Origin: Patescibacteria group bacterium
GTDB taxonomy: Bacteria > Patescibacteriota > Microgenomatia > UBA1400 > MFAQ01
Length of the DNA: 64,000 nt
Direction of reading: 5' to 3'
NCBI GenBank assembly: GCA_943355005.1
Contig: CALRDV010000001.1
Location: forward strand, 92,632-156,631
Shown: positions 1-12,293 of the stretch, one piece after another
Numbering within the stretch: the first letter of the stretch is position 1
Layout: every line of letters starts with the position of its first letter
The notes under the pieces: model-generated
The model's input: only the letters and a program-made list of their open reading frames with translations
Told to the model about the DNA's origin: nothing
Database searches by the model: none
Position numbers and translations under genes: made by a program

Positions 1-1547
1 ATTCTTTTTACTCCACAACCTCATACCAGTTCACCAAGATTCTGTACACTTGTAATGGAAAAACCATAACGGACAATTTGCAACAGCTTTGCGACAAGTA
101 CAACACTTTCTCTTTGATTGCTGCTTCCAAGCTCGCCGACGCCGTCTATCAAGTTTCTGTTGAAGGCCTTGATGAAGTTGGTAACTCCTCACCTATCAGC
201 TTCACCTTGGTTGTAGGTAAGAATACTCCTAAACCTACACCCACTCCTAAACCTACACCCACTTCTAAACCAACTCCTACCCCCACTCCTACCCCAACTC
301 CAACTCCTACCCCCACTCCCACTGTTACAAGTACCCCAGCAGATACTCCTACTCCTACCCCCACTCCCACTCAAACCATTACCATTCAAGTAAACGACGT
401 CAACGGTCAGCCTGTCAGTGGTGTCGGTGTCATGGTCACCCCCGTTGCTCCGACTACTCTCACCGATTCCCCACCCATCACTATTCAAACCGTAACTCTC
501 ACCGCTACCGAGCCGTCTGCTACTAATACAGCTTCTTCGGGGACACAGGAAAATCTATCCATATTCGAACAATTCAAAATTGCTTTAAACAATATTATCG
601 GAGAAAAGACGAATGAAAATGGTCAAATCACTTTAGAGATTCCTCCCGGTGACTATCGGGTCAGAGTCAATGCTGCCACCGAATCCTTTATATTTCCCTC
701 GGTTCTTGCCGCGGAAACCTCGGTCACTAAGGTAGAACTACCCGTAGCTAAGAATTCTATCCAAATTGCCCCTGAGCCATTACCGGTCATCATCAAGAGT
801 TCGGAGAAAGTCTCGGAAGCGGTTGTTCAAGTCTCGGCTACTTCTGTCGCCGCCGTCACCACCTATGGGACACTCACTTCTATCATTGTTGCTATCAAAT
901 CCCTTCTCCCCATCTATGCCGAAACTGGTCGGAGTTTGGCCAGTCTTCCTCTGGACTTTCTAAACGCTTTGTCCAAGCTCGGTCTAAACTACTTTGGTAC
1001 TGGACTTACTTTTATCACCGGCAGGGTCTTTCTGAAGAGGAAGAGAGACGGGTTTGTTTTTGACAGTATTTCTCACAAGCCCATCTTCGGTGCCTATGTC
1101 CTCCTATATTCCCAGTCTGGTAATCTAGCCACGGATTTTACTGACATTGAAGGCAGATACTCCGTCAGTCCTCAGCCGGACACCTATCGTCTAAAAACTC
1201 AATCCACCGGTTTTATTTTCCCCTCAACAATTATCAGCAATGGTCAAGACATTGTTTATTCAAACGTCTACATTCCCGGTGAAGAAGTAGAAGTTGTCAA
1301 TCCCGTAGTACAGCCTGTAAGATATTCGGTAGCCATGGATCCCAAGATCTCCGGACCTATTTCAAAAGGTACAAGCTTCATACGTAGTTTACTGAAGAAA
1401 CTAAAGTATCCTCTCTACATCCTCACTTTTGTCTCCCTGTTCTTCACCTCACTCTCTCCGACTGCCGGCTACTACCGTTCCATCTTCATCATCTTCTGCA
1501 TCCACATCATCTTGAACATTTATCACAGCATTACCGCCAAGGCTTGA
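1..1547 (+). CDS. Surface/membrane protein, 5'-truncated by the window edge. It has a long (TP)n/PTPTPKPTP linker, a carboxypeptidase-regulatory-like beta-sandwich segment ([16 protein letters not shown]...TDIEGRYSV) and a C-terminal hydrophobic anchor.
   Basis: The frame of the listed ORF (78..1547, TTG start) stays open back to base 3, so the true start is upstream of the window. The linker is low-complexity Thr/Pro; the C-terminal ~45 aa are strongly hydrophobic. Confidence 0.5.
229..400 (+). repeat. Imperfect tandem ACTCCT/ACCCCC-type hexanucleotide tract encoding the (TP)n linker; could expand or contract.
   Basis: Direct reading shows cctacaccc / actcctaaa / actcctaccccc units repeated about 25 times. 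Confidence 0.6.
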
Positions 1548-1601
1548 GTTGATTGAATTTAAATTGACACATCAACTACAAAAGTCTAAAATTCCTTATC
1601 C

Positions 1602-4600
1602 ATGGAAAAAATCAAATCTGGGCTACGTTCTTTTGGTGTTAGGAATGCCATTTTGTCCCTGATAGGAATAGCTGTTATCGTCTTTGGTGTTATTTTTGCG
1701 TCCAATTATCTTCGAAGTTCTGCCCGTTCGAGGCTAGGTTCTGATGCCGGCTTGGTGCTTACAGCCGACAGAGAAGATACCCTGGGAGCCTTCACAGACA
1801 CTACCTTCACCCTGAAGTCAGACAAAGACCTGTCGGTTTCAGATGTCAAAAAGAACATCATCTTCTTCCCCGAAATCGATTTTGATGTTAGAGAAGTTGG
1901 CTCACGCCAATTTAGCATTAAGCCCAAAAACAATCTAAATGATAACAGCCTTTATCGCATCAAGATTCTTTCACAAGCCAAAACCTTTTCCTGGGCATTT
2001 CAAACGAAGAACGATTTTCGGGTTGTTCAGTCTCTTCCCAGAGACAAAGGCACCTACGTTCCCCTCAATTCCGGTATCGAAGTCACCTTTAGCCATGACA
2101 ATTGGGAAGACATAAATTTCAAAACGAATAACTTCGAAATCACCCCAAATGTTGAAGGCCGATTTGAGAGACATTCCAGAACCTTATCTTTCGTGCCCAA
2201 ATCGCTGGCTCCGGACACCTTGTATACAGTCAAAGTTAAGAAAGGTGTCGTATTAAAGGGTAGTACCGACTCGCTTAAGGAAGATTATATTTTTCAGTTC
2301 GAAACCCAGCCGGCCAGTAGGGACCAAGTCCAATTAAATCTTTCCAGAAGTTTCTACGAATTTTCTCAGGCCGAAACACCGGCCCTTGATTTGTACAGTT
2401 CGTCGCAAGGCGGTGCCGATGTCACAGTGAAAGTCTACCAGGATCCCCCTCAAGGTTTTCTGTCGGATTTAATTACCAAACTTTCCATTCCTTCGTGGGC
2501 CAACAACTCTCTTCGAAACAATCGCCGTCCGGTTTCGGGTCTCACCAAAGTACTCGAGTTTAATACTCCTATCCAGAAGCAAACTTATACCTCCTACGTG
2601 ATGTTTCCTCAGACCTTGCCAAAAGGTTATTACATTGTCGAACTTAATATTGGTAATGTCACTACCCAAGCCCTAATACAAATTACCGACATCTCGGCCT
2701 ATCTCTCGGTCAGTGGTACCAAAACAGTCGTCTGGGTAAACGATTTGAAGACTGCCGGTCCCATTTCAGGAGCCGAGGTTGTTCTTGGTGAGGTCAAGGG
2801 TACTTCAGTCGCCGACGGTACAGTTTCTTTTGATACTCCTCTGGATAAATTATCAGATATAAAATATGCCACTGTTTCCAAGGGTGATAGTAAATTATTC
2901 CTACCTCTTCAAAACTCCCGTTATTACTACGATGCTTCATACCAAAATTCTCGCCGACAGACGGATAAATACTGGAATTATTTCTATACCGATCGTCCCG
3001 CTTATCTTCCTACAGACACTCTAAAGTTCTGGGGTTTACTTAGAGATCGCGATAATCTAAGCCAGAAACAAAAATTCACCCTCGAGGTTACCAGGACAGA
3101 TTACTCAAATTGGGATTTTAACCCGGTTGTTTTATTTTCCAGAGAAATTGAGACGAGTGACTTGGGTACTTTTATCGGAGATATACCTCTGACCAATTTC
3201 AATCCTGGCTACTACGGTGTAAATCTCAAGCTCGGCAGCAACATTATTTCCAGTTCTTCTTTCTCCGTAGAGACCTACACCAAGCCGGCATACAAGATTT
3301 CTCTGAATTCACCGAAAAAGGCCTACATTATCGGTGACACTGTCACTTTTTCCGGCCAGGCAACTTTCTTCGAGGGCTCTCCGGTTCCCGGCATGAATCT
3401 CAAGTACAGCATAGGGGGAGATGAAGGAAAAATGTCCACCGACTCAATGGGGAAATACAGCTTCAATTACACTGCTGGTGTCTCGAATAACACCTACAGT
3501 TATTCTCCGGAATCTAAATATATCAATGTCTATTCTGCTCTTCAGGAAGAAGGGGAAATAAACACTAACACCTCTATTTCAGTATTTGACTCTTCATTGG
3601 TATTTGGAAATTCCAAGTCTTCTACCAAGGACCAAGCAGGCAATGTCGAGGTAGATTTGAGGCTAGTTGATACTGATAAATATGTTCAAGGTACTCCAAT
3701 TGAAGAACTTTTTGCCCCCGCTCCATCCAGACAAATTACAGGTGACCTCATGGAAAACCAATATGTAAAGAAAGAAGTTGGCACCTATTACGATTTTATT
3801 AATAAAATTACTACTCCCAGATACGAGTACAGCACAGTCCAGAATAAAATCGCTGACATCACACTGACTACCGATTCAAACGGGAAAGCTGTTTATTCAT
3901 TCCCTGCTACCAAAGGCAAGTCCTACAACGTAAGGCTAAAAGCATCAGACGATCAAGGAAGAGTTACCTCTCGGGATATTTATGTTTCCGGTTACGCTAG
4001 TGACAACTACCTAAATAGTTACCTGTATCTAAAAACGAACAAAACAGGTGAAATCCAAAATAGGTATTCGGTAGGAGAACAAGTGAGTCTTACTTTGATG
4101 AAAGGTGAGTCGGAATTAGTTACCAATTCCTCAGATAAATTCCTTTATCTCTTTGCCCAACGAGGCATCAAGTCTTATCAGATTACCTCAGGTAACAGTA
4201 TTAGTTTCAAATATTCTGATATTTTTGTGCCAAATATCAATATTACTGCGGTTCGTTTCACCGGTAAGACTTATGAGGTTGCAGAAAATATGAGTTTGTA
4301 TTTCGACACAAGTTCCAAAAAACTCTCCTTGGATGTGACCAAAGATAAAGCAACTTACCTTCCGGGGGATACTGCGAAGATTTCTGTTTTGGCCAAGGAT
4401 TTTTCCGGGAGTCCTGCCCAGGCAGAAGTAAATCTTAGTTTTGTGGATGAAGCTTACTACGCGCTTTACAGCCAGTATTTGGACCCACTTTCCCGAATTT
4501 ATTCTCAGCTCGATTCGGACATCATTGCAAGTTATCAATCTCATCGTTATCCCCTTGATAGTGGTGGTGCTGAAGGTGGTGGGTGTTTCTTGCCTGGGAC

Positions 4601-6818
4601 TCAGATTCTCATGTCGGATGGAAAAACCAAGAATATTGAAGATGTTAAAGTCGGAGATAAAGTCAAAACTCTTACTTCTTCCGATTCAGATAAATTGGTA
4701 AGCGCCAAAGTTATCAAGACATTTGTTCACAAATTAGCTGGCTATCTTGTAATAAACAATCACCTTAGAGTGACCGGTGAACACAACTTATTTATCAACG
4801 GCCGATGGATGACTGCTTTGGAAGCCAAGGTAGGGGATTCTTATCTGGACGTAAATGGTAAATATCAGGATATTTATTCCATCGAAAATTATTCGGGAAT
4901 TAATACTGTCTACAACTTTACGGTCGAGAAACTCAGCACTTATTTTGCTGATGGATTCTATGTTCACAACGACAAGGGCCGTGAACTCTTTGTAGACAAT
5001 GCCTTCTTTGGTAGTGTCAGGACCGGTGCCGATGGTCGCGCCTCAGTAGACGTGAAGCTTCCCGACAATCTTACTTCCTGGAGAATCACATCTCAGGGAA
5101 TCACGGGAGATCTGAAGGTGGGTGTCGCTCAAACTCCACTTATCGTCAAACAACCTCTCTTTGTCGATGCCGTCATGAATACTGAATATGTCATCGGAGA
5201 TCATCCACAGATTTTAGTTCGTGTCTATGGTGAAGGATTGTCTACTGGGGAAAACGTAAATGTCGTGGTTCAGTCGGATAGTTTAGGAATCTCCAAAACA
5301 TTCTCAGTTAAAGCTTTTGAATCTTCCAAAATTGATCTTGGAGTGCTAAAGGAAGGTATCCATAAAATTTCTTTCACCGGGAACTCCGGAAGTTTGTCTG
5401 ACAAACTTATTCGTAGCCTTACCGTTATCCCATCCAGATTGCAGGTTGCTAAAACGGAAAGTTCGGCTCTTACTGCTGAGACTAAGCCTGTCGGATCCTC
5501 AAATTCTCCTACCGGAATATTTATTTCAGACCTAAGTTTGGGGCGTTTCTACCCTCCACTACTGAATCTGTCATATACATGGGGAGATCGTTTGGATCAA
5601 AGAATTGCCCGTACTCTTTCTCAAGAAATTATCAAAAAAAGTTTTGATGATACTGTTATTCCGGAAAAATTGGACCTAACTTCCTTTCAGACTGGTGAAG
5701 GTGGCTACGCTCTCTTTCCATACTCCGGTTCAGATTTAGAACTATCCGCCTTTGTGGCTGCTTTGGCTGGTGATAAAGTTGATAGAGTAGGTCTTGCCAA
5801 TTATTTCTATAGAAATCTTTCAAAAATTCAGGACTCGGAAGGCTTTGCCAAATCTCTATACGGTCTAGCTTCTCTGGATGAGCCGGTTCTTCTTTTAATA
5901 AACCGTCTCGATGAGACCAAAAATCTTTCGCCTATGGCTAGGATTTATATTGGCTTAGCTCAAGCCGCCATTGGAGATACCGAGAATGCGGCTGATACCT
6001 ATCGTTCACTAATATCTGAGTTTGCCATCCCACAAGATAATCTTACTTACATGAAGGTGGGAAATGATAAGGATAGCTTTTTAAGAGCCACCGCTCTTAC
6101 TTCTGCCTTAGCTTCAGTTCTAAGTGAGAAAGAAGCTGATAGTCTTTTGGCTTATACCTTAAGTAATAGGGCCAAAGATATTCTATTAGTTTCGCCGGAA
6201 TTAATATCCATCAAGAATCAAGTTAACAATTCTGTTCCTCAGCCTGTCTCTTTTGCTTACACTTTGGGTGGTAAAAAAGTCACTAAGAGTTTAGAAAAAG
6301 GAAAAGTATTTAAGCTGGAACTTTCACCCAAAGACTTGGCGGATATCACTTTCTCTGATATTGTAGGCAGTGTGGGGATAACTTCTGCTTACTTCACTCC
6401 CTTGGATCCCAAAACAGCAACTGTAGACCCGTCGGTAAAAGTTAGTCGAAATTATTCTGTCAAAGGTAAAGATACAACCGTGTTCTCTGAGTCTGATCTT
6501 GTCAAAGTCACTCTTCCGGTTACTTATGCCGCCATTACTCAGGATGGTTGTTATCAGGTCACAGACATCCTTCCGTCGGGTCTGAAACCTGTTACATCCA
6601 TGTCATCCATGATTAGCAATGCCTATCTATACCCCTATGATATCAATGGTCAGAAGGTCAGCTTCTGTGTCTCCAAGGGCGATACGAGGAGTAGTGTGTC
6701 CTATTATGCTCGAGTGATATCGGCAGGGGATTACAGGTCGGAGAACGCAATTATTCAGTCACTCAAGGCTCCGTCAATCTTCAATTTCTCACCTGCCGGA
6801 ACCGTGAGTATCAAATGA
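1602..6818 (+). CDS. Giant (1738 aa) membrane-anchored alpha-2-macroglobulin-like protein with degenerate thioester site, carrying a Hint/bacterial-intein-like domain at the bait-region position.
   Basis: N-terminal TM helix (ILSLIGIAVIVFGVIFASNYL). A2M MG motif 'AFFGSVRTGADGRASVDVKLPDNLTSWRI...GDLKVGVAQ' (compare human A2M 'PDTITEW'). Helical TED-like region 'TGEGGYALFPY...LSAFVAALAG' in place of CGEQ. Hint domain from 'GGGCFLPGTQILMSDG' to 'FYVHN'. Confidence 0.65.
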   Translation: MEKIKSGLRSFGVRNAILSLIGIAVIVFGVIFASNYLRSSARSRLGSDAGLVLTADREDTLGAFTDTTFTLKSDKDLSVSDVKKNIIFFPEIDFDVREVGSRQFSIKPKNNLNDNSLYRIKILSQAKTFSWAFQTKNDFRVVQSLPRDKGTYVPLNSGIEVTFSHDNWEDINFKTNNFEITPNVEGRFERHSRTLSFVPKSLAPDTLYTVKVKKGVVLKGSTDSLKEDYIFQFETQPASRDQVQLNLSRSFYEFSQAETPALDLYSSSQGGADVTVKVYQDPPQGFLSDLITKLSIPSWANNSLRNNRRPVSGLTKVLEFNTPIQKQTYTSYVMFPQTLPKGYYIVELNIGNVTTQALIQITDISAYLSVSGTKTVVWVNDLKTAGPISGAEVVLGEVKGTSVADGTVSFDTPLDKLSDIKYATVSKGDSKLFLPLQNSRYYYDASYQNSRRQTDKYWNYFYTDRPAYLPTDTLKFWGLLRDRDNLSQKQKFTLEVTRTDYSNWDFNPVVLFSREIETSDLGTFIGDIPLTNFNPGYYGVNLKLGSNIISSSSFSVETYTKPAYKISLNSPKKAYIIGDTVTFSGQATFFEGSPVPGMNLKYSIGGDEGKMSTDSMGKYSFNYTAGVSNNTYSYSPESKYINVYSALQEEGEINTNTSISVFDSSLVFGNSKSSTKDQAGNVEVDLRLVDTDKYVQGTPIEELFAPAPSRQITGDLMENQYVKKEVGTYYDFINKITTPRYEYSTVQNKIADITLTTDSNGKAVYSFPATKGKSYNVRLKASDDQGRVTSRDIYVSGYASDNYLNSYLYLKTNKTGEIQNRYSVGEQVSLTLMKGESELVTNSSDKFLYLFAQRGIKSYQITSGNSISFKYSDIFVPNINITAVRFTGKTYEVAENMSLYFDTSSKKLSLDVTKDKATYLPGDTAKISVLAKDFSGSPAQAEVNLSFVDEAYYALYSQYLDPLSRIYSQLDSDIIASYQSHRYPLDSGGAEGGGCFLPGTQILMSDGKTKNIEDVKVGDKVKTLTSSDSDKLVSAKVIKTFVHKLAGYLVINNHLRVTGEHNLFINGRWMTALEAKVGDSYLDVNGKYQDIYSIENYSGINTVYNFTVEKLSTYFADGFYVHNDKGRELFVDNAFFGSVRTGADGRASVDVKLPDNLTSWRITSQGITGDLKVGVAQTPLIVKQPLFVDAVMNTEYVIGDHPQILVRVYGEGLSTGENVNVVVQSDSLGISKTFSVKAFESSKIDLGVLKEGIHKISFTGNSGSLSDKLIRSLTVIPSRLQVAKTESSALTAETKPVGSSNSPTGIFISDLSLGRFYPPLLNLSYTWGDRLDQRIARTLSQEIIKKSFDDTVIPEKLDLTSFQTGEGGYALFPYSGSDLELSAFVAALAGDKVDRVGLANYFYRNLSKIQDSEGFAKSLYGLASLDEPVLLLINRLDETKNLSPMARIYIGLAQAAIGDTENAADTYRSLISEFAIPQDNLTYMKVGNDKDSFLRATALTSALASVLSEKEADSLLAYTLSNRAKDILLVSPELISIKNQVNNSVPQPVSFAYTLGGKKVTKSLEKGKVFKLELSPKDLADITFSDIVGSVGITSAYFTPLDPKTATVDPSVKVSRNYSVKGKDTTVFSESDLVKVTLPVTYAAITQDGCYQVTDILPSGLKPVTSMSSMISNAYLYPYDINGQKVSFCVSKGDTRSSVSYYARVISAGDYRSENAIIQSLKAPSIFNFSPAGTVSIK
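4584..4970 (+). other. Hint / bacterial intein-like (BIL) domain, about 129 aa, embedded in the A2M-like protein. The flanks are DSGGAEGGG|C ... VHN|DKG, so there is no C+1 nucleophile.
   Basis: N-terminal splicing motif C-F-L-x-G-T-x-I; block B 'TGEH'; C-terminal 'VHN'. The following residue is Asp, as in BIL domains rather than canonical inteins. Confidence 0.6.
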
Positions 6819-8614
6819 AGCATCTTAAGAAGCATCTTGTCATTCCGGGCCCTGCCTTGCTAGTAGGCAGGTTGACCCGGAATCCATCTGGATTTGTAAT
6901 TGGTCTTCTGTTGTCCTTATTACTTATCGTACTTGGAATAAACATTTTACTTTCTTATAAGCCCAGAAAAACAATTTCTCTAAAGCCAACCTTCTCCACA
7001 GACTTTGCCTATGACAATCGTACTTTTCTCCACGCCGTAGCCGAAAACAAAAGTATTGGAGGTTCTATTCCGAGTGTCGTTATCCTACCCCACCATCTAC
7101 TTGCTTCCACCATTATTGCAGAAGGCATTTCGATGTTGGCGAGGCAGTCACCTAAAACTATTATTATTCTTTCTCCAAATCATGCGAATACCGGCCAGTG
7201 TGACATTGTTACTTCACGAAATAGTTGGGAGACTCCCTTTGGTCAAATGGATGTTGATCTAGATATTCAAAAGATATTTTTGGATTCCAAGATTATATGT
7301 ACAGACGACACCGCTATGCAGGTGGAGCACGGTGTAGCCGGTCTTTTGCCATTTATTAAATATTATCTACCGAACACTAAAGTTGTTCCTTTGGCACTAA
7401 AGAAAGAAATTGATCCTAATTCGTTCAAAATATTTACTCAAAAATTAATTGAAGTTTCCAAAAACTCTACCATTTTAGCCTCCATCGACTTCTCTCATGG
7501 TCTGTCTCAGAAGGAATCATTAAAGCGGGACAGCCAAACAAAAAGTTTAATTGCCAATCTTAATTATTCGGAATTAGAAAAATTATCTTCTGAGTACATA
7601 GACTCCCCAATATCTCTCATTTCTGCACTAAGTGTAATTAATTCCTATGGTTCCAAGCCCGAATTTCTCGTTCACTCCGACTCGTCAGCATTCAATAGAG
7701 ACACCAAAGATGTCACCTCATATTTTTTGATTTCCGACACACCGTCATTGCGAGGTACTCCGCGGCAATCTACCGGCTCGAACGACTCCTTCACCCTTGT
7801 CTTCGGCGGAGACGTCATGCTTGGTCGTTCTGTGAACACTCGCATGCTCAAATATTCAGATTTCACTTGGCCTTTTTTAAAAATATCAACTTTACTTTCC
7901 CAAGCAGATTTAACTCTGGTGAATCTGGAGTCGCCCTTTCGCTCTGGATGCAAAGAGTCTGATTCTGGAATGGTTTTCTGTGCGGATCCACGGTCCATCG
8001 AAGGTTTACTCGCCGCAGGAGTGGATGTTGTGAATCTGGCCAACAACCATATTGATAACCAGGGAAAAGAGGGGATAACTGAGACTTTGGAGATTTTAAA
8101 TAAGAATAATATTGTCTCTGTGGGGGTGGACCCCCGCGACCACCCAACTCCGTCAAATATTTTCACCATCAAAAACACCAAAATCGCCTTCCTCGGCTTT
8201 GACGATATTCGACCCGTCTCATCGGAAGTTACTTCTGCCACTCCGGAAAATATCAAGACTCAAATCGCTGAAGCCAAAAAGATGTCTGATCTTGTTGTAG
8301 CCACCTTTCACTGGGGAAGCGAATACAGTTCTCACAATTCCGGACAAGAATATTTGGCTCATCTAGCTATTGATTCCGGTGCCGACTTGGTCATTGGTCA
8401 TCACCCCCACTGGGTTCAGGAGTTTGAAGAATACAAAAGCAAGCCCATCTATTATTCTTTGGGAAACTTGGTCTTCGATCAAATGTGGTCCGACAAGACC
8501 AGAAATGGACTAGTTGTCAGATTCACTTACACTGGTTCCGATTTGCTCAACAGAGAAGAATTCCCCATCAAGATTTTTGACTACGGCCAACCGGCTCTGC
8601 TATACAATAAGTAG
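6815..8614 (+). CDS. Membrane-anchored fusion protein: MEMO1/AmmeMemoRadiSam-B-like domain fused to a CapA/PGA_cap metallophosphatase-like domain. The N-terminal tail is encoded by a palindromic repeat.
   Basis: Memo-like 'ILPHHLLAST...LSPNHAN...WETPFGQMDVD...VEHGVAGLLPFIKYYLP'. CapA-like 'FGGDVMLGR...NLESPF...NLANNHIDNQG...HWGSEYS...IGHHPHW'. TM 'FVIGLLLSLLLIVLGINILL'. The ATG overlaps the stop of the upstream gene (ATGA). Confidence 0.6.
   Translation: MKHLKKHLVIPGPALLVGRLTRNPSGFVIGLLLSLLLIVLGINILLSYKPRKTISLKPTFSTDFAYDNRTFLHAVAENKSIGGSIPSVVILPHHLLASTIIAEGISMLARQSPKTIIILSPNHANTGQCDIVTSRNSWETPFGQMDVDLDIQKIFLDSKIICTDDTAMQVEHGVAGLLPFIKYYLPNTKVVPLALKKEIDPNSFKIFTQKLIEVSKNSTILASIDFSHGLSQKESLKRDSQTKSLIANLNYSELEKLSSEYIDSPISLISALSVINSYGSKPEFLVHSDSSAFNRDTKDVTSYFLISDTPSLRGTPRQSTGSNDSFTLVFGGDVMLGRSVNTRMLKYSDFTWPFLKISTLLSQADLTLVNLESPFRSGCKESDSGMVFCADPRSIEGLLAAGVDVVNLANNHIDNQGKEGITETLEILNKNNIVSVGVDPRDHPTPSNIFTIKNTKIAFLGFDDIRPVSSEVTSATPENIKTQIAEAKKMSDLVVATFHWGSEYSSHNSGQEYLAHLAIDSGADLVIGHHPHWVQEFEEYKSKPIYYSLGNLVFDQMWSDKTRNGLVVRFTYTGSDLLNREEFPIKIFDYGQPALLYNK
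6839..6892 (+). repeat. GTCATTCC...GGAATCCATCTGG palindromic repeat with a nested inner palindrome, translated as 'VIPGPALLVGRLTRNPSG' at the N-terminus of the Memo/CapA gene.
   Basis: gtcattccgggccctgccttgctagtaggcaggttgacccggaatccatctgg. Confidence 0.8.
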
Positions 8615-8615
8615 T

Positions 8616-9761
8616 ATGAAAAACATCTGCCGCACTCTGGCTATCTTCCTTTCCTCATTAACATTTATTTTTCTCTTTTCCTTCCCTGCCCACGCTGTAT
8701 TTATTCAGTCAGGCAACGTTTTAGATCTACCTAAAGACAAGAAAATTGACGAATCCGTCCTAATTAGTGGTGGTACCCTCACTGTTGATTCGGACATAAA
8801 TGGTGATTTGTTGTGTGCAGGCAAGGATGTGGTGGTAAATGGAAATATCAAAGGAGATATCCTTTGTGCAGCTCAGTCAATTAAGGTCAATGGCAACGTC
8901 GACGGCAATATAAGAGTTGTAGCTCAAAATATCGAGATAACAGGTACGATTACTCGTAATTTATATTCACTGGCTCAAAATCTATCTTTATCAAAGCTTT
9001 CTTCGGTAAAAGGTGATATTTTCTTTGGAGTGCAGAATGTAGACTTGCGCGGTTCCCTTGGCAGAGATATGTTGGGAGCCGGTGACAAGATTGATATTAC
9101 CGGTTCGCTCTTACGGAACGCCAAAGTTACAGCCACCAAAATATCTGTTTCGGATCCGGCCAGGATAGGTGGTAATTTTGAGTACTATATTGATAATGCC
9201 GGTATTGCTTCTGTAAGTGCTGCAAATGTAAAAGGCGAGATTCTCAAACATGAAATTGTAAGACAAACTCCGGAGAAGAAAAATCGAGAACCAAAACCTT
9301 TCGTAATGTTTTTTGGAAAAATTTATTCAGTCATAACTTACATCGTCTTGGGATTAGTCCTTTTATATTTCCTCAAAAAAGGTATTGAGGATCGTACAGC
9401 AATTCTTGTTTCCAAACCGCTTGTGACAGGTTTAATAGGCTTAGCGGTACTTATGTTGACGCCTATTGTGTTTATTCTTCTTCTTATGACTTTCATCGGG
9501 GTACCTTTAGCTTTTGTCCTGATCATTGAGTATGTTTTGGCCATAATTACCGGGACAATCTATTCCACCATTGCCCTTGGCTGGTGGATCATGAAGAACT
9601 TGGCAAAGAGTAAAAAAGAAAGTGATGTCTGGTCCTTAGTGGTTGGAGCCATCGCCATGGGTCTACTTACAAGTATCCCTGTTCTGGGTTTCTTTGTCGG
9701 TCTTATTGCTTTATGTTTGGGTATGGGAGCCATATTTACTTCATACCTTCCCAAGAAATAA
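8616..9761 (+). CDS. Secreted or membrane protein. It has a signal peptide, bactofilin-like beta-helix repeats (V.GD/GN...I.G), and four C-terminal TM helices.
   Basis: Signal 'LAIFLSSLTFIFLFSFPAHA'. Repeats 'DINGDLLCAGKDVVVNGNIKGDILCAAQSIKVNGNVDGNIRVVAQNIEITGTI'. Hydrophobic C-terminus. I chose the start at ATG 8616 rather than the listed 8514. Confidence 0.5.
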   Translation: MKNICRTLAIFLSSLTFIFLFSFPAHAVFIQSGNVLDLPKDKKIDESVLISGGTLTVDSDINGDLLCAGKDVVVNGNIKGDILCAAQSIKVNGNVDGNIRVVAQNIEITGTITRNLYSLAQNLSLSKLSSVKGDIFFGVQNVDLRGSLGRDMLGAGDKIDITGSLLRNAKVTATKISVSDPARIGGNFEYYIDNAGIASVSAANVKGEILKHEIVRQTPEKKNREPKPFVMFFGKIYSVITYIVLGLVLLYFLKKGIEDRTAILVSKPLVTGLIGLAVLMLTPIVFILLLMTFIGVPLAFVLIIEYVLAIITGTIYSTIALGWWIMKNLAKSKKESDVWSLVVGAIAMGLLTSIPVLGFFVGLIALCLGMGAIFTSYLPKK

Positions 9762-9769
9762 TTTTCACA

Positions 9770-9803
9770 AAAAAATCCGGCCGCGTTTTTGCGGTCGGAT
9801 TGG
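9770..9803. terminator. Bidirectional rho-independent terminator between convergent genes.
   Basis: aaaaaaatccggccgcgtttttgcggtcggatt: a GC stem flanked by an A-run and a T-run. Confidence 0.6.
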
Positions 9804-9806
9804 TTA

Positions 9807-10187
9807 TTATTCTTCTTTTGAAGCACCTTCGGCGTTTACCATTAGTTCATTTAGTTTAGATAAGACCTCTTGGTCGACTTCTCCAACGTTATACTCACCG
9901 ACTAAATATCCAATTGGTGAGTAATCGTGATTTTCATACCAGGGGACATATTCAGAAGGTAATTCTGTACCATTTGTTCTGACTTTAATAATCTCAACAA
10001 TTTCACCGTGCAATATAGCATCTACAAAGTCCGGACACGGTACATATCCGTGATTTGAGATATAGTGACAAGTCATTTTGTATACCAGATATTTATACAA
10101 ACGCTCATGTACTTGAATAACAATCTCTACATCGGCAGCTTCCTCTTCCTTCAATCCCTTACACAGTCCGCAAGCTCTAAAAGCCAT
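9807..10187 (-). CDS. Hypothetical protein (126 aa, Cys-containing).
   Basis: ORF of reasonable size that ends just before the convergent terminator. Confidence 0.4.
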   Translation of the reverse strand: MAFRACGLCKGLKEEEAADVEIVIQVHERLYKYLVYKMTCHYISNHGYVPCPDFVDAILHGEIVEIIKVRTNGTELPSEYVPWYENHDYSPIGYLVGEYNVGEVDQEVLSKLNELMVNAEGASKEE

Positions 10188-10243
10188 TTGTGCACCTCTT
10201 TCCTGTTTTTAAGGATTTTCTATCTGCTTGATTCTACACCCTC

Positions 10244-10993
10244 CTATTTTGTTAGGGCAGACCGAAGTGATAGAAATACAGTCCCGACATAGGGTGGAAA
10301 TTTTGCCGAAGCGGTGCTAGCTTCCTCAGAAGCCGGCATAAAGATGTGAACAATACCATTTTGGACATACAAGAATCGAGTTGTTACCAGCCCACTCATA
10401 TCTTTAACTTTTAGCTTTAAATATGAGGTTGAGCCTGTGGATATCTCAGAAGCACTTAGGATATCCCCACGTTTCTTCTGGTATTCATCACTCATGGCAA
10501 ACTCACCATCAAGTTTTCTGCGATACCAATCTCTCCTAGATGTACCATCATAGTAGTTTTTGGTGCCGGCATTTCCAGCAAAGACGGAACTTGAATAATC
10601 CCAAAGTTCAGTCGCAGTAGAATCATTTTGAATGGTAAACTCTGACCCGGTGAATCTAAAAGAGAATCCTGGTGGTAAAGATAGCGTGGTTTTGAAGCCA
10701 AACTGAGGGTCGGTATCTGTAAAAGATTTCCAATCGGCAGGTATAGTTGGTGCTTTTACAATTGATGTACTAGGCTTTGGTTGATTTGGAGAAGTGTCTC
10801 GGGTCTGAATTTGTTCAGGCAGATCTTTTTCATCTAGCATGTCTAAATCACTTTTTCGATTATTCTGGGAGACATAATACCCCACAAGCCCAAAAAACAC
10901 TCCCAAAACGAAAATGGTGGTGAAAACAGGGAAATTTTTTGCTGACAACATTTTTGACAAGCTCTTCATAGAAAACAATGTTTCTTTCTTCAT
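10244..10993 (-). CDS. Hypothetical membrane-anchored protein (N-terminal TM, extracytoplasmic domain).
   Basis: TM 'FPVFTTIFVLGVFFGLVGYYV'; no recognisable catalytic motif. Confidence 0.5.
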   Translation of the reverse strand: MKKETLFSMKSLSKMLSAKNFPVFTTIFVLGVFFGLVGYYVSQNNRKSDLDMLDEKDLPEQIQTRDTSPNQPKPSTSIVKAPTIPADWKSFTDTDPQFGFKTTLSLPPGFSFRFTGSEFTIQNDSTATELWDYSSSVFAGNAGTKNYYDGTSRRDWYRRKLDGEFAMSDEYQKKRGDILSASEISTGSTSYLKLKVKDMSGLVTTRFLYVQNGIVHIFMPASEEASTASAKFPPYVGTVFLSLRSALTK

Positions 10994-11020
10994 AGAACCA
11001 TTATATTACCAAGCATATTG

Positions 11021-11091
11021 TCGGGGTACTCAGAATTGAACTGAGATCGCGCGCACCCCATGCGCGCATACTACCGTTATACTATACCCCG
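11021..11091 (-). tRNA. tRNA-Pro (anticodon GGG), 71 nt, no encoded CCA.
   Basis: Folded by hand: acceptor CGGGGUA/UACCCCG, D-arm GUAU-AACGGUA-GUAU (with G-U pairs), anticodon stem CGCGC/GCGCG with loop AUGGGGU (U33, GGG, G37), T-arm CUCAG-UUCAAUU-CUGAG, discriminator A. Confidence 0.7.
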
Positions 11092-11120
11092 AATCGAACC
11101 TGTCAATTTTACCACTTATT

Positions 11121-11145
11121 CGTCATTGCGAGTTTCGTTATTTAG
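11121..11145 (+). repeat. Truncated copy of the GTCATTGCGAG-type repeat.
   Basis: cgtcattgcgagtttcgttatttag. Confidence 0.5.
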
Positions 11146-11174
11146 AACTTTGTTCATTCAGGGAATTATGTATC

Positions 11175-11202
11175 TTGCGAAAATAACCCAAATAGTTATA
11201 AT
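11175..11202 (+). promoter_or_regulatory. Sigma70-like promoter upstream of recA (TTGCGA-N16-TATAAT).
   Basis: ttgcga at 11175-11180, tataat at 11197-11202. Confidence 0.45.
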
Positions 11203-11231
11203 GGCTTTAGTTAACAAAATACCCGAAGAAA

Positions 11232-12293
11232 ATGCCAAAGAAATCCAAGAAAGATAAAGAAGCCAAGTCCGTCGGTGAACACGTAGATAACTCAGCCCGT
11301 CTTACTGCAGTCAAAATCGCCATGCAGCAAATTACCAAGCAGTTCGGCGAAGGTGCCATTATGCATATGGGTTCCGATAAGGTTGGTGAAAAAATTCCCG
11401 TCATTTCTTCCGGCTCTATTAGTTTGGACTTGGCTCTTGGTATCGGCGGCTTTCCACGCGGTCGTATAGTCGAGATTTACGGCCCGGAAGCTTCCGGTAA
11501 GACGACAGTCGCACTCCACGTCATCGCTGAAGCCCAGAAGGCCGGTGGCATTGCTGCCTTTATCGACGCTGAGCATGCTGTGGATCCGAATCGAGCCAAA
11601 TCTATCGGAGTAAATTTGGACGAACTTCTTTTATCACAGCCGGATAACGGGGAACAAGCCCTGGAAATTGCCGAAACCCTAATTCGCTCAGGCGGAGTAG
11701 ACGTGGTAGTCATTGACTCTGTTGCCGCTTTGGTACCCAAATCCGAAATCGAAGGCGAAATGGGAGACTCCTCCATGGGTCTTCAGGCCAGACTTATGAG
11801 TCAAGCTCTTCGAAAAATCACTGGTGCCATTGCCAAAAGTAAATGTATTGTCATTTTTACGAACCAGCTTAGAGAAAAGATTGGTGTGATGTTTGGCAAT
11901 CCGGAAGTCACTACCGGAGGTAAAGCTCTTAAATTCTATGCATCCATCCGTATCGACATGCGCAAAATCGGCAATATTCAGGAAGGCGATGAAATTATTG
12001 GCTCTCGTCACAGAGCCAAGATAGTGAAAAACAAAGTTGCTTCGCCCTTTAGAACCGCCGAGTTCGATGTTCTAAATGTTGGAGGTATAAGTAAACTAGG
12101 GGATCTTATCGATACTGCTATTGCCTACAATGTACTTGAGAAAGCCGGCTCCTTCATCAAATACGAAGGTGAGACACTTGCCCAAGGACGAGAATCGGCC
12201 AAAACCACCCTGGCAGAGAGACCGGAAATGATTGAGAAAATCAAAGTTCAAGTCATGGAAAAGGTAAATGCAGGAATTCAGCCGGAAAAGTGA
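11232..12293 (+). CDS. recA: Recombinase RecA
   Basis: Walker A 'GPEASGKTT'; typical RecA blocks '[21 protein letters not shown]', '[50 protein letters not shown]'. Confidence 0.95.

Follow-up and report, generated by a model that had tools for sequence, protein, structure and literature searches.

A thioester-less alpha-2-macroglobulin homolog with a Hint domain in its bait region and its conserved Memo-CapA gene partner in Patescibacteria

The DNA analyzed here (referred to as the window) is a 64-kb stretch from a Patescibacterium, whose closest named relatives are Candidatus Collierbacteria. Its first part, positions 1 to 9761, holds four open reading frames (ORFs) on the forward strand, g1 to g4 (Table 1). 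They encode a protein with a (TP)n linker, an alpha-2-macroglobulin (A2M) homolog with a Hint domain of bacterial intein-like (BIL) type, a Memo-CapA fusion protein and a beta-helix membrane protein. The original prediction, made from the sequence alone, took these four co-oriented and tightly packed genes for a cell-envelope module. Profile searches (Pfam, TIGR04336) bore out all four domain assignments, including A2M-BIL, Memo and CapA. The packing is indeed tight, with a gap of 54 nt between g1 and g2, an ATGA overlap of g2 and g3 (6815-6818), and a single base between the g3 stop codon (TAG, 8612-8614) and the g4 ATG. All four products also appeared exported or membrane-anchored in a hydropathy scan (Kyte-Doolittle, cruder than SignalP). 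The shared orientation is weak evidence alone, because nearly every gene from 1 to 26.5 kb lies on the + strand. Comparison with related genomes upheld g2 and g3 as a conserved pair with translational coupling, so that neither outcome named beforehand as fatal to the prediction (homologs never side by side, Memo and CapA failing in profile searches) occurred; the wider four-gene module did not stand, since g1 is absent from the relatives examined and g4 is confined to one clade.

An A2M-fold protein with a Hint domain in its bait region

Pfam searches of g2 identified the domains Big_5, bMG3, MG2, A2M_BRD (aa 820-955, 3.9e-12), PT-HINT/Hint (aa 989-1123, 3.5e-9) and A2M/MG7 (aa 1135-1221, 1.1e-10). 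A single-sequence phmmer search of the PDB was almost blind (E = 2e-4), and a family profile was needed, which matched ECAM (1e-27) as well as Salmonella A2M, TEP1, CD109, human A2M and C5. An AlphaFold model of aa 790-1738 (pLDDT 88.4) contains beta domains, a helical TED-like region (aa 1313-1542) and a C-terminal MG domain, and Foldseek searches with this model returned bacterial A2Ms on top at about 1e-32 (ECAM, 8e-33). The protein thus has the MG, BRD, MG7, helical TED and C-terminal MG domains of the alpha-2-macroglobulin superfamily, in order, behind one N-terminal transmembrane (TM) segment. Members of the family are labeled in NCBI as 'hypothetical', 'Ig-like domain-containing' or 'polymorphic toxin-type HINT domain-containing protein'.

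The protein lacks the CXEQ thioester. The equivalent site was placed by eye against what we take to be the E. coli thioester motif, in a stretch that no alignment with a solved A2M covers. At the aligned site, CXEQ occurs in none of 120 homologs, and the family has GDR(L/V)DQ instead, with R1330 and Q1333 of g2 nearly invariant. With GDRLDQ at this by-eye-placed site, g2 falls outside the Type I (thioester) A2Ms, and its A2M fold, its bait region in the form of a disordered loop, and its lack of CXEQ agree with Type II. The pairing with pbpC (PBP1C) is likewise missing, with no transglycosylase or PBP1C adjacent to g2 here or in the related loci L082-L087.

A2M_BRD precedes the Hint domain and A2M/MG7 follows it, which places the Hint in the loop equivalent to the bait region. 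Against human A2M, the profile match picks up at chain residue 727, directly past the Hint, and we take the human bait region to be residues 690-728 in UniProt numbering. With C5, segments matching the beta-chain lie on one side of the Hint interval and segments matching the alpha-chain on the other. The counterpart of the interval in ECAM is chain positions 870-936, and the disordered bait of ECAM comprises Arg923-Leu942 (PMC4498604). The only low-confidence stretches in the g2 model are the 8-10 residues on either side of the Hint, which is thus held in the loop by two disordered linkers.

The best solved relative of the Hint is the BIL domain 2lwy (2.9e-16, family profile against PDB), which we take to be a BIL shown to ligate without a +1 nucleophile. 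Among 125 unique Hint sequences, Cys1 and the terminal His-Asn are present in all, the T..H of block B is intact, the -1 residue is Gly in 96%, and the length is 129 aa in 104, as in g2. No endonuclease was found in the Hint. The +1 residue is E in 51 sequences, D in 42, Q in 18, A in 5, N in 3, S in 3, T in 2 and M in 1; taken together, E, D and Q account for 89%, the nucleophiles C, S and T for 4%, and non-nucleophilic residues for 96%. In the window protein it is Asp1124 (4971-4973). The Hint fold, N-terminal Cys, C-terminal His-Asn and absence of a +1 nucleophile are the features of type A BIL domains, which were reportedly described by Amitai in 2003 and Dassa in 2004. A canonical (class 1) intein does not fit, with Asp at +1 and a variable, Gly-rich, disordered loop as the host site. 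The preference for acidic or amide residues at +1 is strong; this residue would be the new N-terminus if C-terminal cleavage occurs.

The insertion point is constant across the family, with ...AEGGG followed by C...VHN and then D/E/Q-KG, and hosts that share Hint length and site are only about 30% identical. Hint and host identities are correlated (Pearson r = 0.85 over 2016 pairs), no pair among these suggested horizontal spread, and identity is higher in the Hint (47.5%) than in the remainder of the protein (36%). The Hint thus evolves vertically with its host. It is present in 64 of the 120 nearest database clusters and in 80/80 metagenomic loci, the latter from a scan ranked by a Hint-bearing query. 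Orthologs that lack it have a plain Gly run, 'AEGGG-GG-..', at the exact site. A literature search returned nothing that links A2M with Hint or BIL domains.

In many other lineages, a gene for a sigma factor of the extracytoplasmic function (ECF) type (Sigma70_r2/r4_2) lies directly 5' of the A2M-Hint gene or overlaps it. In these sigma-linked A2Ms, an additional 30-90 cytoplasmic residues at the N-terminus, with the shared motif EPASxDF..ALKxKIL, precede the TM segment. The g2 protein of the window has neither the upstream sigma factor nor the extra segment. The sigma-linked proteins may be anti-sigma factors with an A2M ectodomain, serving as surface proteolysis sensors; a Pfam search for an anti-sigma domain in the N-terminal extension gave no match.

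The Memo-CapA protein and its linkage to A2M genes

The g3 protein scores well above the cut-offs for Memo (PF01875, 4.8e-24, 85.5 bits against 27), for AmmeMemoSam_B (TIGR04336, 1.9e-29, 102.7 bits against 26) and for PGA_cap (PF09587, 1.1e-62, 212 bits against 27). Its structural model shows a TM helix (aa 24-48) and two confident domains joined by a disordered linker (aa 311-322), with a pTM of 0.52 that leaves the relative orientation of the Memo and CapA domains undefined. In Foldseek searches the Memo domain matched MEMO1 (TMt 0.72), and the closest solved structure to the CapA-like domain was MslH (1.7e-18).

Both domains of this signal-anchored protein keep their metal-site residues. 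In the Memo domain, H93, H123, D225 and H228 are invariant in 18 fusions and align with MEMO1 residues that are presumably the metal ligands H49, H81, D189 and H192. In the CapA-like domain, D333, E372, N411, H412, H499, H530 and H532 are invariant in the compared fusions, and D333, E372, N411, H412, H499 and H532 are the equivalents of MslH D11, E44, N87, H88, H259 and H295. MslH D91 is replaced by Asn415 and MslH H261 by Gly, and g3 H530 supplies the GHxH histidine that is absent in MslH and present in YmdB-type di-metal phosphoesterases (PMC10406935). The CapA-like domain is probably an active metalloenzyme. Assignment as an MslH-type peptide epimerase is unwarranted, given a score of 77.7 bits against a cut-off of 700 (NF038314) and the Asn at the position of Asp91, which in MslH belongs to the His88/Asp91 dyad (the other dyad being His295/Asp11).

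The fusion of Memo and CapA, singled out as an oddity in the original prediction, proved to be a family of more than 40 clusters with 31-67% identity, which also occurs without an adjoining A2M. Nor does its CapA-like domain point to poly-gamma-glutamate synthesis. The ORFs of 150 aa or more in the 64-kb window include no CapB/CapC, AMMECR1, partner radical SAM protein, PBP1C or sigma factor, and the gene tables of related loci also lack CapB/CapC, AMMECR1 and a partner radical SAM protein. Literature searches found no link between PGA_cap and Memo, and a search for AmmeMemoRadiSam gave nothing mechanistic.

In L081-L087, the A2M gene always lies directly 5' of the Memo-PGA_cap gene, with stop and start overlapping. 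Proteins identical to g2 and g3 are present in public data, on a contig of 326,620 bp. The g3 homologs in L082-L087 are 67, 56, 49, 49 and 40% identical to g3. These loci are not independent, because they share the long-range synteny recA-recX-rny-HU-miaB-miaA. Five loci without other common genes (L003, L004, L090, L092 and L094) also pair A2M with Memo or Memo-CapA. In L004, the A2M gene overlaps a Memo-CapA fusion gene; in L003, it overlaps a Memo-only gene, with a divergent CapA-only gene 66 nt away. The order is ECF sigma, A2M, Memo in L090 and again in L092, where a CapA gene is convergent, so that split Memo and CapA genes flank the A2M gene in both L003 and L092. In L094, a Hint-less A2M gene overlaps a Memo gene in a non-Patescibacterial context with microcompartment genes. 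The Memo-only and CapA-only partners in other loci are predicted to be exported like the A2M ectodomain, because all have N-terminal hydrophobic segments. The Memo-only partner in L092 (13564-14454) starts with MRVLLLGILSGIVLLGC, a lipobox-like signal, and some partners may accordingly be lipoproteins rather than TM-anchored.

To extend the comparison, a metagenome scan was seeded with the A2M family, and the resulting 80 loci were scanned with hidden Markov models and dereplicated at 70% A2M identity, giving 61 clusters. Downstream sequence of 1 kb or more is available in 52 clusters, and in 41 of these the next gene 3' of A2M, in the same orientation, is Memo. Forty clusters have 2.5 kb or more; Memo occurs in 31 of them and CapA in 13, fused to Memo in 10 of the 13. 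An ECF sigma gene lies directly 5' of A2M in 21 of 48 clusters, and of the 41 clusters that could be assessed fully, a single one lacks both sigma and Memo. Adjoining and often overlapping A2M and Memo(-CapA) genes thus recur across unrelated genomic contexts, and g2-g3 is a conserved pair in Patescibacteria and some other lineages.

Two narrower forms of this linkage were rejected. Memo is not tied to the Hint, as the Hint-less A2Ms of L087 and L094 also have it. Nor is Memo-CapA specific to A2M, as distant fusions pair with other proteins (Table 1). Four of these are preceded by a TM-anchored protein of about 590 aa that belongs to no Pfam family (38-44% mutual identity), and DUF3160 is a neighbor of distant fusions in metagenome-assembled genomes labeled Atribacteria and Caldisericum. 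Memo-CapA may serve several kinds of large exported proteins.

Outer neighbors and transcript signals

The full product of g1 is a 2182-aa protein on its own contig, with no Pfam family in the precomputed annotation. The C-terminal 514 aa held in the window match CarboxypepD_reg (4.5e-8, Pfam) and end in a TM segment by hydropathy. A g1 homolog was not found upstream of A2M in any of L082-L087, where A2M is preceded by RNase HII, ribosomal protein S9 or other genes, and tblastn searches with g1 and g4 against 80 genome loci gave zero matches. We therefore regard g1 as an unrelated neighbor outside the conserved unit. GC skew over positions 1-2000 is -0.25, the lowest of the window, to which C-rich ACN/CCN codons in the Thr/Pro-rich part of g1 probably contribute.

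The g4 protein matches Bactofilin (PF04519, 1.6e-9, 38.4 bits against a gathering score of 27.9), a family with a cytoplasmic, polymer-forming role in the cytoskeleton, and is assigned to DUF8173 in the precomputed annotation. Its signal-like N-terminal segment and four C-terminal TM segments (hydropathy) suggest an exported beta-helix (about aa 56-139); its best PDB sequence matches are very weak. It is linked to g2-g3 only within the Collierbacteria-like clade, where one inserted gene, on either strand, usually splits it from g3. Neither L087 nor any of the distant loci has it, and g4-like genes among the metagenomic clusters occur only in those of Collierbacteria type. A four-gene operon was thus rejected as the conserved unit, with g1 missing in all relatives and g4 clade-specific. 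A DUF7919 gene at 9807-10187 (-), convergent to g4, shares the hairpin at 9774-9801. A DUF7919 gene also adjoins the g4 homolog in L082-L084 and is present in L087 too, where g4 is absent.

The promoter-like site in the g1/g2 gap is the best match in 1..11300 (11/12), and its -10 element ends 9 nt 5' of the g2 ATG. No obvious Shine-Dalgarno sequence was found ahead of g2 in 1564-1602, and a genuine promoter at this site would give g2 an mRNA with no leader or almost none. The hairpin past g4 is the strongest terminator-like one of the region. With the top-ranked promoter-like site ahead of g2 and the top-ranked terminator behind g4, a single g2-g3-g4 transcript is suggested; g4 is accordingly predicted to be a neighbor that is co-transcribed here and conserved within one clade only.

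About 26 kb away, the segment 35358-37625 (+) encodes an S11 D-Ala-D-Ala carboxypeptidase and, after it, a RimK-like ATP-grasp protein. The two may act together as peptide ligase and cell-wall enzyme, and have no relation to poly-gamma-glutamate synthesis of the CapB type. A role of the four genes in envelope defense, in the anti-phage sense, found no backing, as PADLOC gave no match for g1 to g4.

Table 1. Positions of the genes, domains and signals discussed in the text (window coordinates, except where a locus is named)
Feature	Position	Strand	Description
g1	<1..1547	+	Open at window start; C-terminal 514 aa of 2182-aa protein
g2	1602..6818	+	1738 aa; membrane-anchored thioester-less alpha-2-macroglobulin homolog
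g2 N-terminal signal-anchor TM, aa 16-34	1647..1703	+	Hydropathy 2.70; 4 K/R precede
g2 Hint domain, aa 995-1123	4584..4970	+	Type A BIL features; CFLPGT...FYVHN-D; in Gly-rich bait-region loop
g2 GDRLDQ, aa 1328-1333	5583..5600	+	Family motif at site judged equivalent to CXEQ thioester
g3	6815..8614	+	599 aa; TM, Memo, linker, PGA_cap/CapA
g3 N-terminal TM, aa 28-46	within 6815..8614	+	Hydropathy
g3 Memo domain, aa 71-303	7025..7723	+	Pfam, alignment, Foldseek
g3 PGA_cap (CapA-like) domain, aa 327-556	7793..8482	+	Metallophosphoesterase fold; Pfam, Foldseek
g4	8616..9761	+	381 aa; ATG at 8616 is the most plausible start
g1 (TP)n / (TPKP)n low-complexity linker	224..372	+	TRF periods 6/12/18; translation
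Promoter-like site TTGACA-17-TAAAAT	1564..1592	+	g1/g2 gap; consensus match only
Terminator-like hairpin	9774..9801	+	12 bp, 7 GC, T-rich tail; 13 nt past g4 stop; consensus match only
ECF sigma genes in other loci	L090 7451-8020; L091 7392-7925; L092 7424-7993		Also in 21/48 clusters, L095-L174
Distant Memo-CapA fusions without A2M	L009 8069-9892; L016 8025-9818; L029 8250-9986; L088 8234-9997; L005 11697-14312; L014 5881-8208		

Proposed function and comparison with known systems

A2M and complement proteins are activated by an external protease that cuts the bait loop. We propose, at what we consider an even chance, that g2 and g3 form a two-component surface apparatus, in which a thioester-less (Type II) trap with a self-processing bait works with a Memo-CapA partner. 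In type A BILs, an N-terminal thioester forms and Asn cyclization cuts the C-terminal junction; religation is possible, and cleavage products dominate (PMC4031507). For g2, Sec export and folding would be followed by thioester formation by Cys995 at Gly994-Cys995 and by cyclization of Asn1123, with a cut before Asp1124. Cleavage would be the main outcome, as in the type A BILs studied, with the Hint excised; a minority of molecules may be religated. Cleavage would leave a two-chain trap, in which MG1-6 form a membrane-bound chain of about 109 kDa and MG7-CUB-TED-MG8 a 'swing arm' of about 68 kDa. Excision of the Hint would pre-nick or self-trigger the bait, which in other A2Ms the attacking protease must cut. 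Entrapment would be steric, as in thioester-less Type II A2Ms such as MagD. The g3 protein would be a stoichiometric membrane-anchored partner, analogous to the partners in the Mag operon, and would stabilize or mature the A2M or act enzymatically on the same extracytoplasmic substrate, while g4 would ride the predicted g2-g3 transcript in this genome. Self-cleavage of the Hint is predicted from its conserved catalytic residues; we infer that the Hint would cut rather than splice, and that g3 may bind or mature g2.

Several observations count against this proposal. The Hint-less orthologs P0142, P0144 and L087 nest among Hint-bearing ones; the Hint appears dispensable, because these orthologs keep the Gly-rich loop and the same Memo-CapA partner. 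The TED of g2 is too divergent for Pfam to detect, and protease trapping by g2 is assumed from its fold. About one-fifth of the A2M-Hint loci lack Memo and have an ECF sigma factor instead. Of eight distant Memo-CapA fusions (29-34% identical) with enough flank, seven have no adjacent A2M, and the partner is not A2M-specific, because most of these fusions adjoin other large proteins. The promoter and terminator consensus matches are, overall, no commoner than expected by chance.

We consider it rather unlikely that the Hint is neutral, an evolutionary passenger that, as a mini-intein or BIL, would remove itself by splicing and leave a normal Gly-rich bait loop behind, g2 then working like its Hint-less orthologs. 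The intact Cys1, block B T..H and terminal His-Asn would allow this, splicing by type A BILs does not require a +1 nucleophile (PMC4031507), the solved structure nearest to the Hint, 2lwy, was deposited as a bacterial intein-like domain, and the Hint-less orthologs have a Gly-rich loop at the exact site and the same partner. A passenger is harder to reconcile with a +1 position where E, D or Q make up 89% and nucleophiles 4%, and with the dominance of cleavage products in type A BILs (PMC4031507). It also sits poorly with the lack of an endonuclease and of horizontal spread, with the constant length and site in hosts of about 30% identity, with a Hint that outconserves its host, and with insertion in a variable disordered loop of an exported protein rather than in a conserved motif. 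A further possibility, which we regard as distinctly improbable, is that the Hint replaced the lost CXEQ thioester as the reactive center, with Gly994~Cys995 resolved by an incoming nucleophile or by gated autocleavage. Hedgehog Hint domains pass their cargo to cholesterol. In g2, the nucleophile may come from the attacking protease (a lysine or the N-terminus), from the cell wall (an amine) or from a molecule on the surface of a host cell, and the N-terminal membrane fragment, which would end in ...GGG like ubiquitin, may be covalently ligated to the target. In the gated variant, control may be by redox or metal, possibly via Memo, giving a self-firing trap or, in the sigma-linked proteins, a surface sensor of the proteolysis type.

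The remaining alternatives concern the trap and its partner. It is unlikely, in our view, that g2 is a surface scaffold, adhesin or wall-associated shield without trapping activity, in which case Memo-CapA would act on the envelope and the linkage would reflect envelope maintenance. The missing thioester, the TED that Pfam does not recognize, the pairing of Memo-CapA with other large exported proteins elsewhere, and the glycosyltransferase or epimerase genes near some loci are consistent with such a role. It is countered by the full A2M domain order with a helical TED-like region and C-terminal MG domain, modeled with high confidence, by the conserved disordered bait-like loop, and by MagD, which traps proteases without a thioester (PMC5764988). 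That g1 to g4 are mere neighbors in a dense, strand-biased small genome, with no common function, is very improbable for the locus as a whole. Mere adjacency is true for g1 and largely true for g4, given the lack of conservation of g1, the inserted genes that split g4 from g3 in relatives, the + strand bias from 1 to 26.5 kb, and gene order that is partly inherited among close relatives (recA-recX-rny synteny). It is contradicted for g2-g3 by the recurrence of A2M-Memo(-CapA) in the five loci without other common genes, by the pair in 41/52 dereplicated metagenomic clusters, and by the start/stop overlaps and gene fusion or fission. Least credible of all is a place for g3 in a poly-gamma-glutamate capsule system (as CapA) or in the AmmeMemoRadiSam system (as protein B). 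The PGA_cap (1.1e-62) and TIGR04336 (102.7 bits against 26) matches are those expected of such proteins, but CapB/CapC, AMMECR1 and radical SAM partners are missing from the window (ORFs of at least 150 aa) and from the tables of related loci, and the g3 domains, exported and held by a TM segment, would be on the other side of the membrane from radical SAM partners, which are cytoplasmic.

A large, widespread A2M subfamily with an autocatalytic-type Hint at the bait loop amounts to a natural experiment on bait scission and the conformational switch. If self-processing is true, a BIL domain would here have a recognizable task in the protein that carries it, which is rare. The link of exported and repeatedly fused Memo and CapA-like domains to an A2M also offers a concrete context in which to test two little-known bacterial domain families. 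For Patescibacteria, a surface apparatus conserved in this way may be of importance to a life spent on or among other cells; in a search of the Patescibacteria literature, the one paper that mentions macroglobulin does so only in citing Wong & Dessen.

The nearest known systems are MagD, encoded in magABCDEF of Pseudomonas, and E. coli YfaS, which resemble g2 in lacking CXEQ, having operon partners and associating with the outer face of a membrane. Protease trapping by MagD requires no thioester, but its localization and its processing into two fragments, with conversion from 165 to 100 kDa, depend on a TM-anchored protein of about 590 aa from the same operon (PMC5764988). In contrast to MagD and YfaS, g2 has its own TM anchor and a BIL domain in the bait loop, and its partner g3 combines Memo with a CapA-like domain, no Mag or Yfa families being detected near g2. 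The host is a Patescibacterium and not a Gram-negative bacterium with a periplasm, and some relatives of g2 lie behind an ECF sigma gene. Type I A2Ms (ECAM/YfhM and Salmonella A2M, with PBP1C) are the best sequence and fold matches of g2, with the same domain order and a membrane tether. Unlike them, g2 has no CLEQ thioester or adjacent pbpC, is held by a TM helix rather than a lipid anchor, and carries a Hint in its bait. With type A BILs, the g2 Hint shares its fold, Cys1, His-Asn, lack of a +1 nucleophile and exported or surface host protein, but it is fixed at one site of one family, co-evolves vertically with it, and occupies a functional cleavage loop. A functional analogy, and no more than that, can be drawn with complement C3/C4/C5: the Hint interval falls at the C5 beta/alpha junction, and excision would give the same two-chain topology. 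In complement, a furin-type host convertase makes the two-chain cut, whereas here the cut would be autocatalytic.

For g3, CapA/PgsA proteins belong to the same Pfam family and likewise have an N-terminal membrane anchor with an external domain, but g3 is fused to Memo and has no CapB/CapC in the window or related loci. MslH has equivalents of its D11, E44, N87, H88, H259 and H295 in g3, which differs in the Asn at Asp91, the Gly at His261, the additional His530 and a score below that of the equivalog. MEMO1 and protein B of AmmeMemoRadiSam are matched by g3 in fold (MEMO1) and above the Memo and TIGR04336 cut-offs, whereas g3 is exported behind a TM segment, is joined to CapA and coupled to A2M, and has no AMMECR1 or radical SAM partner (window, L081-L087). 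Bacterial A2M operons are already known, and the unusual twist of this one is the Hint domain in the bait region together with the Memo-CapA partner.

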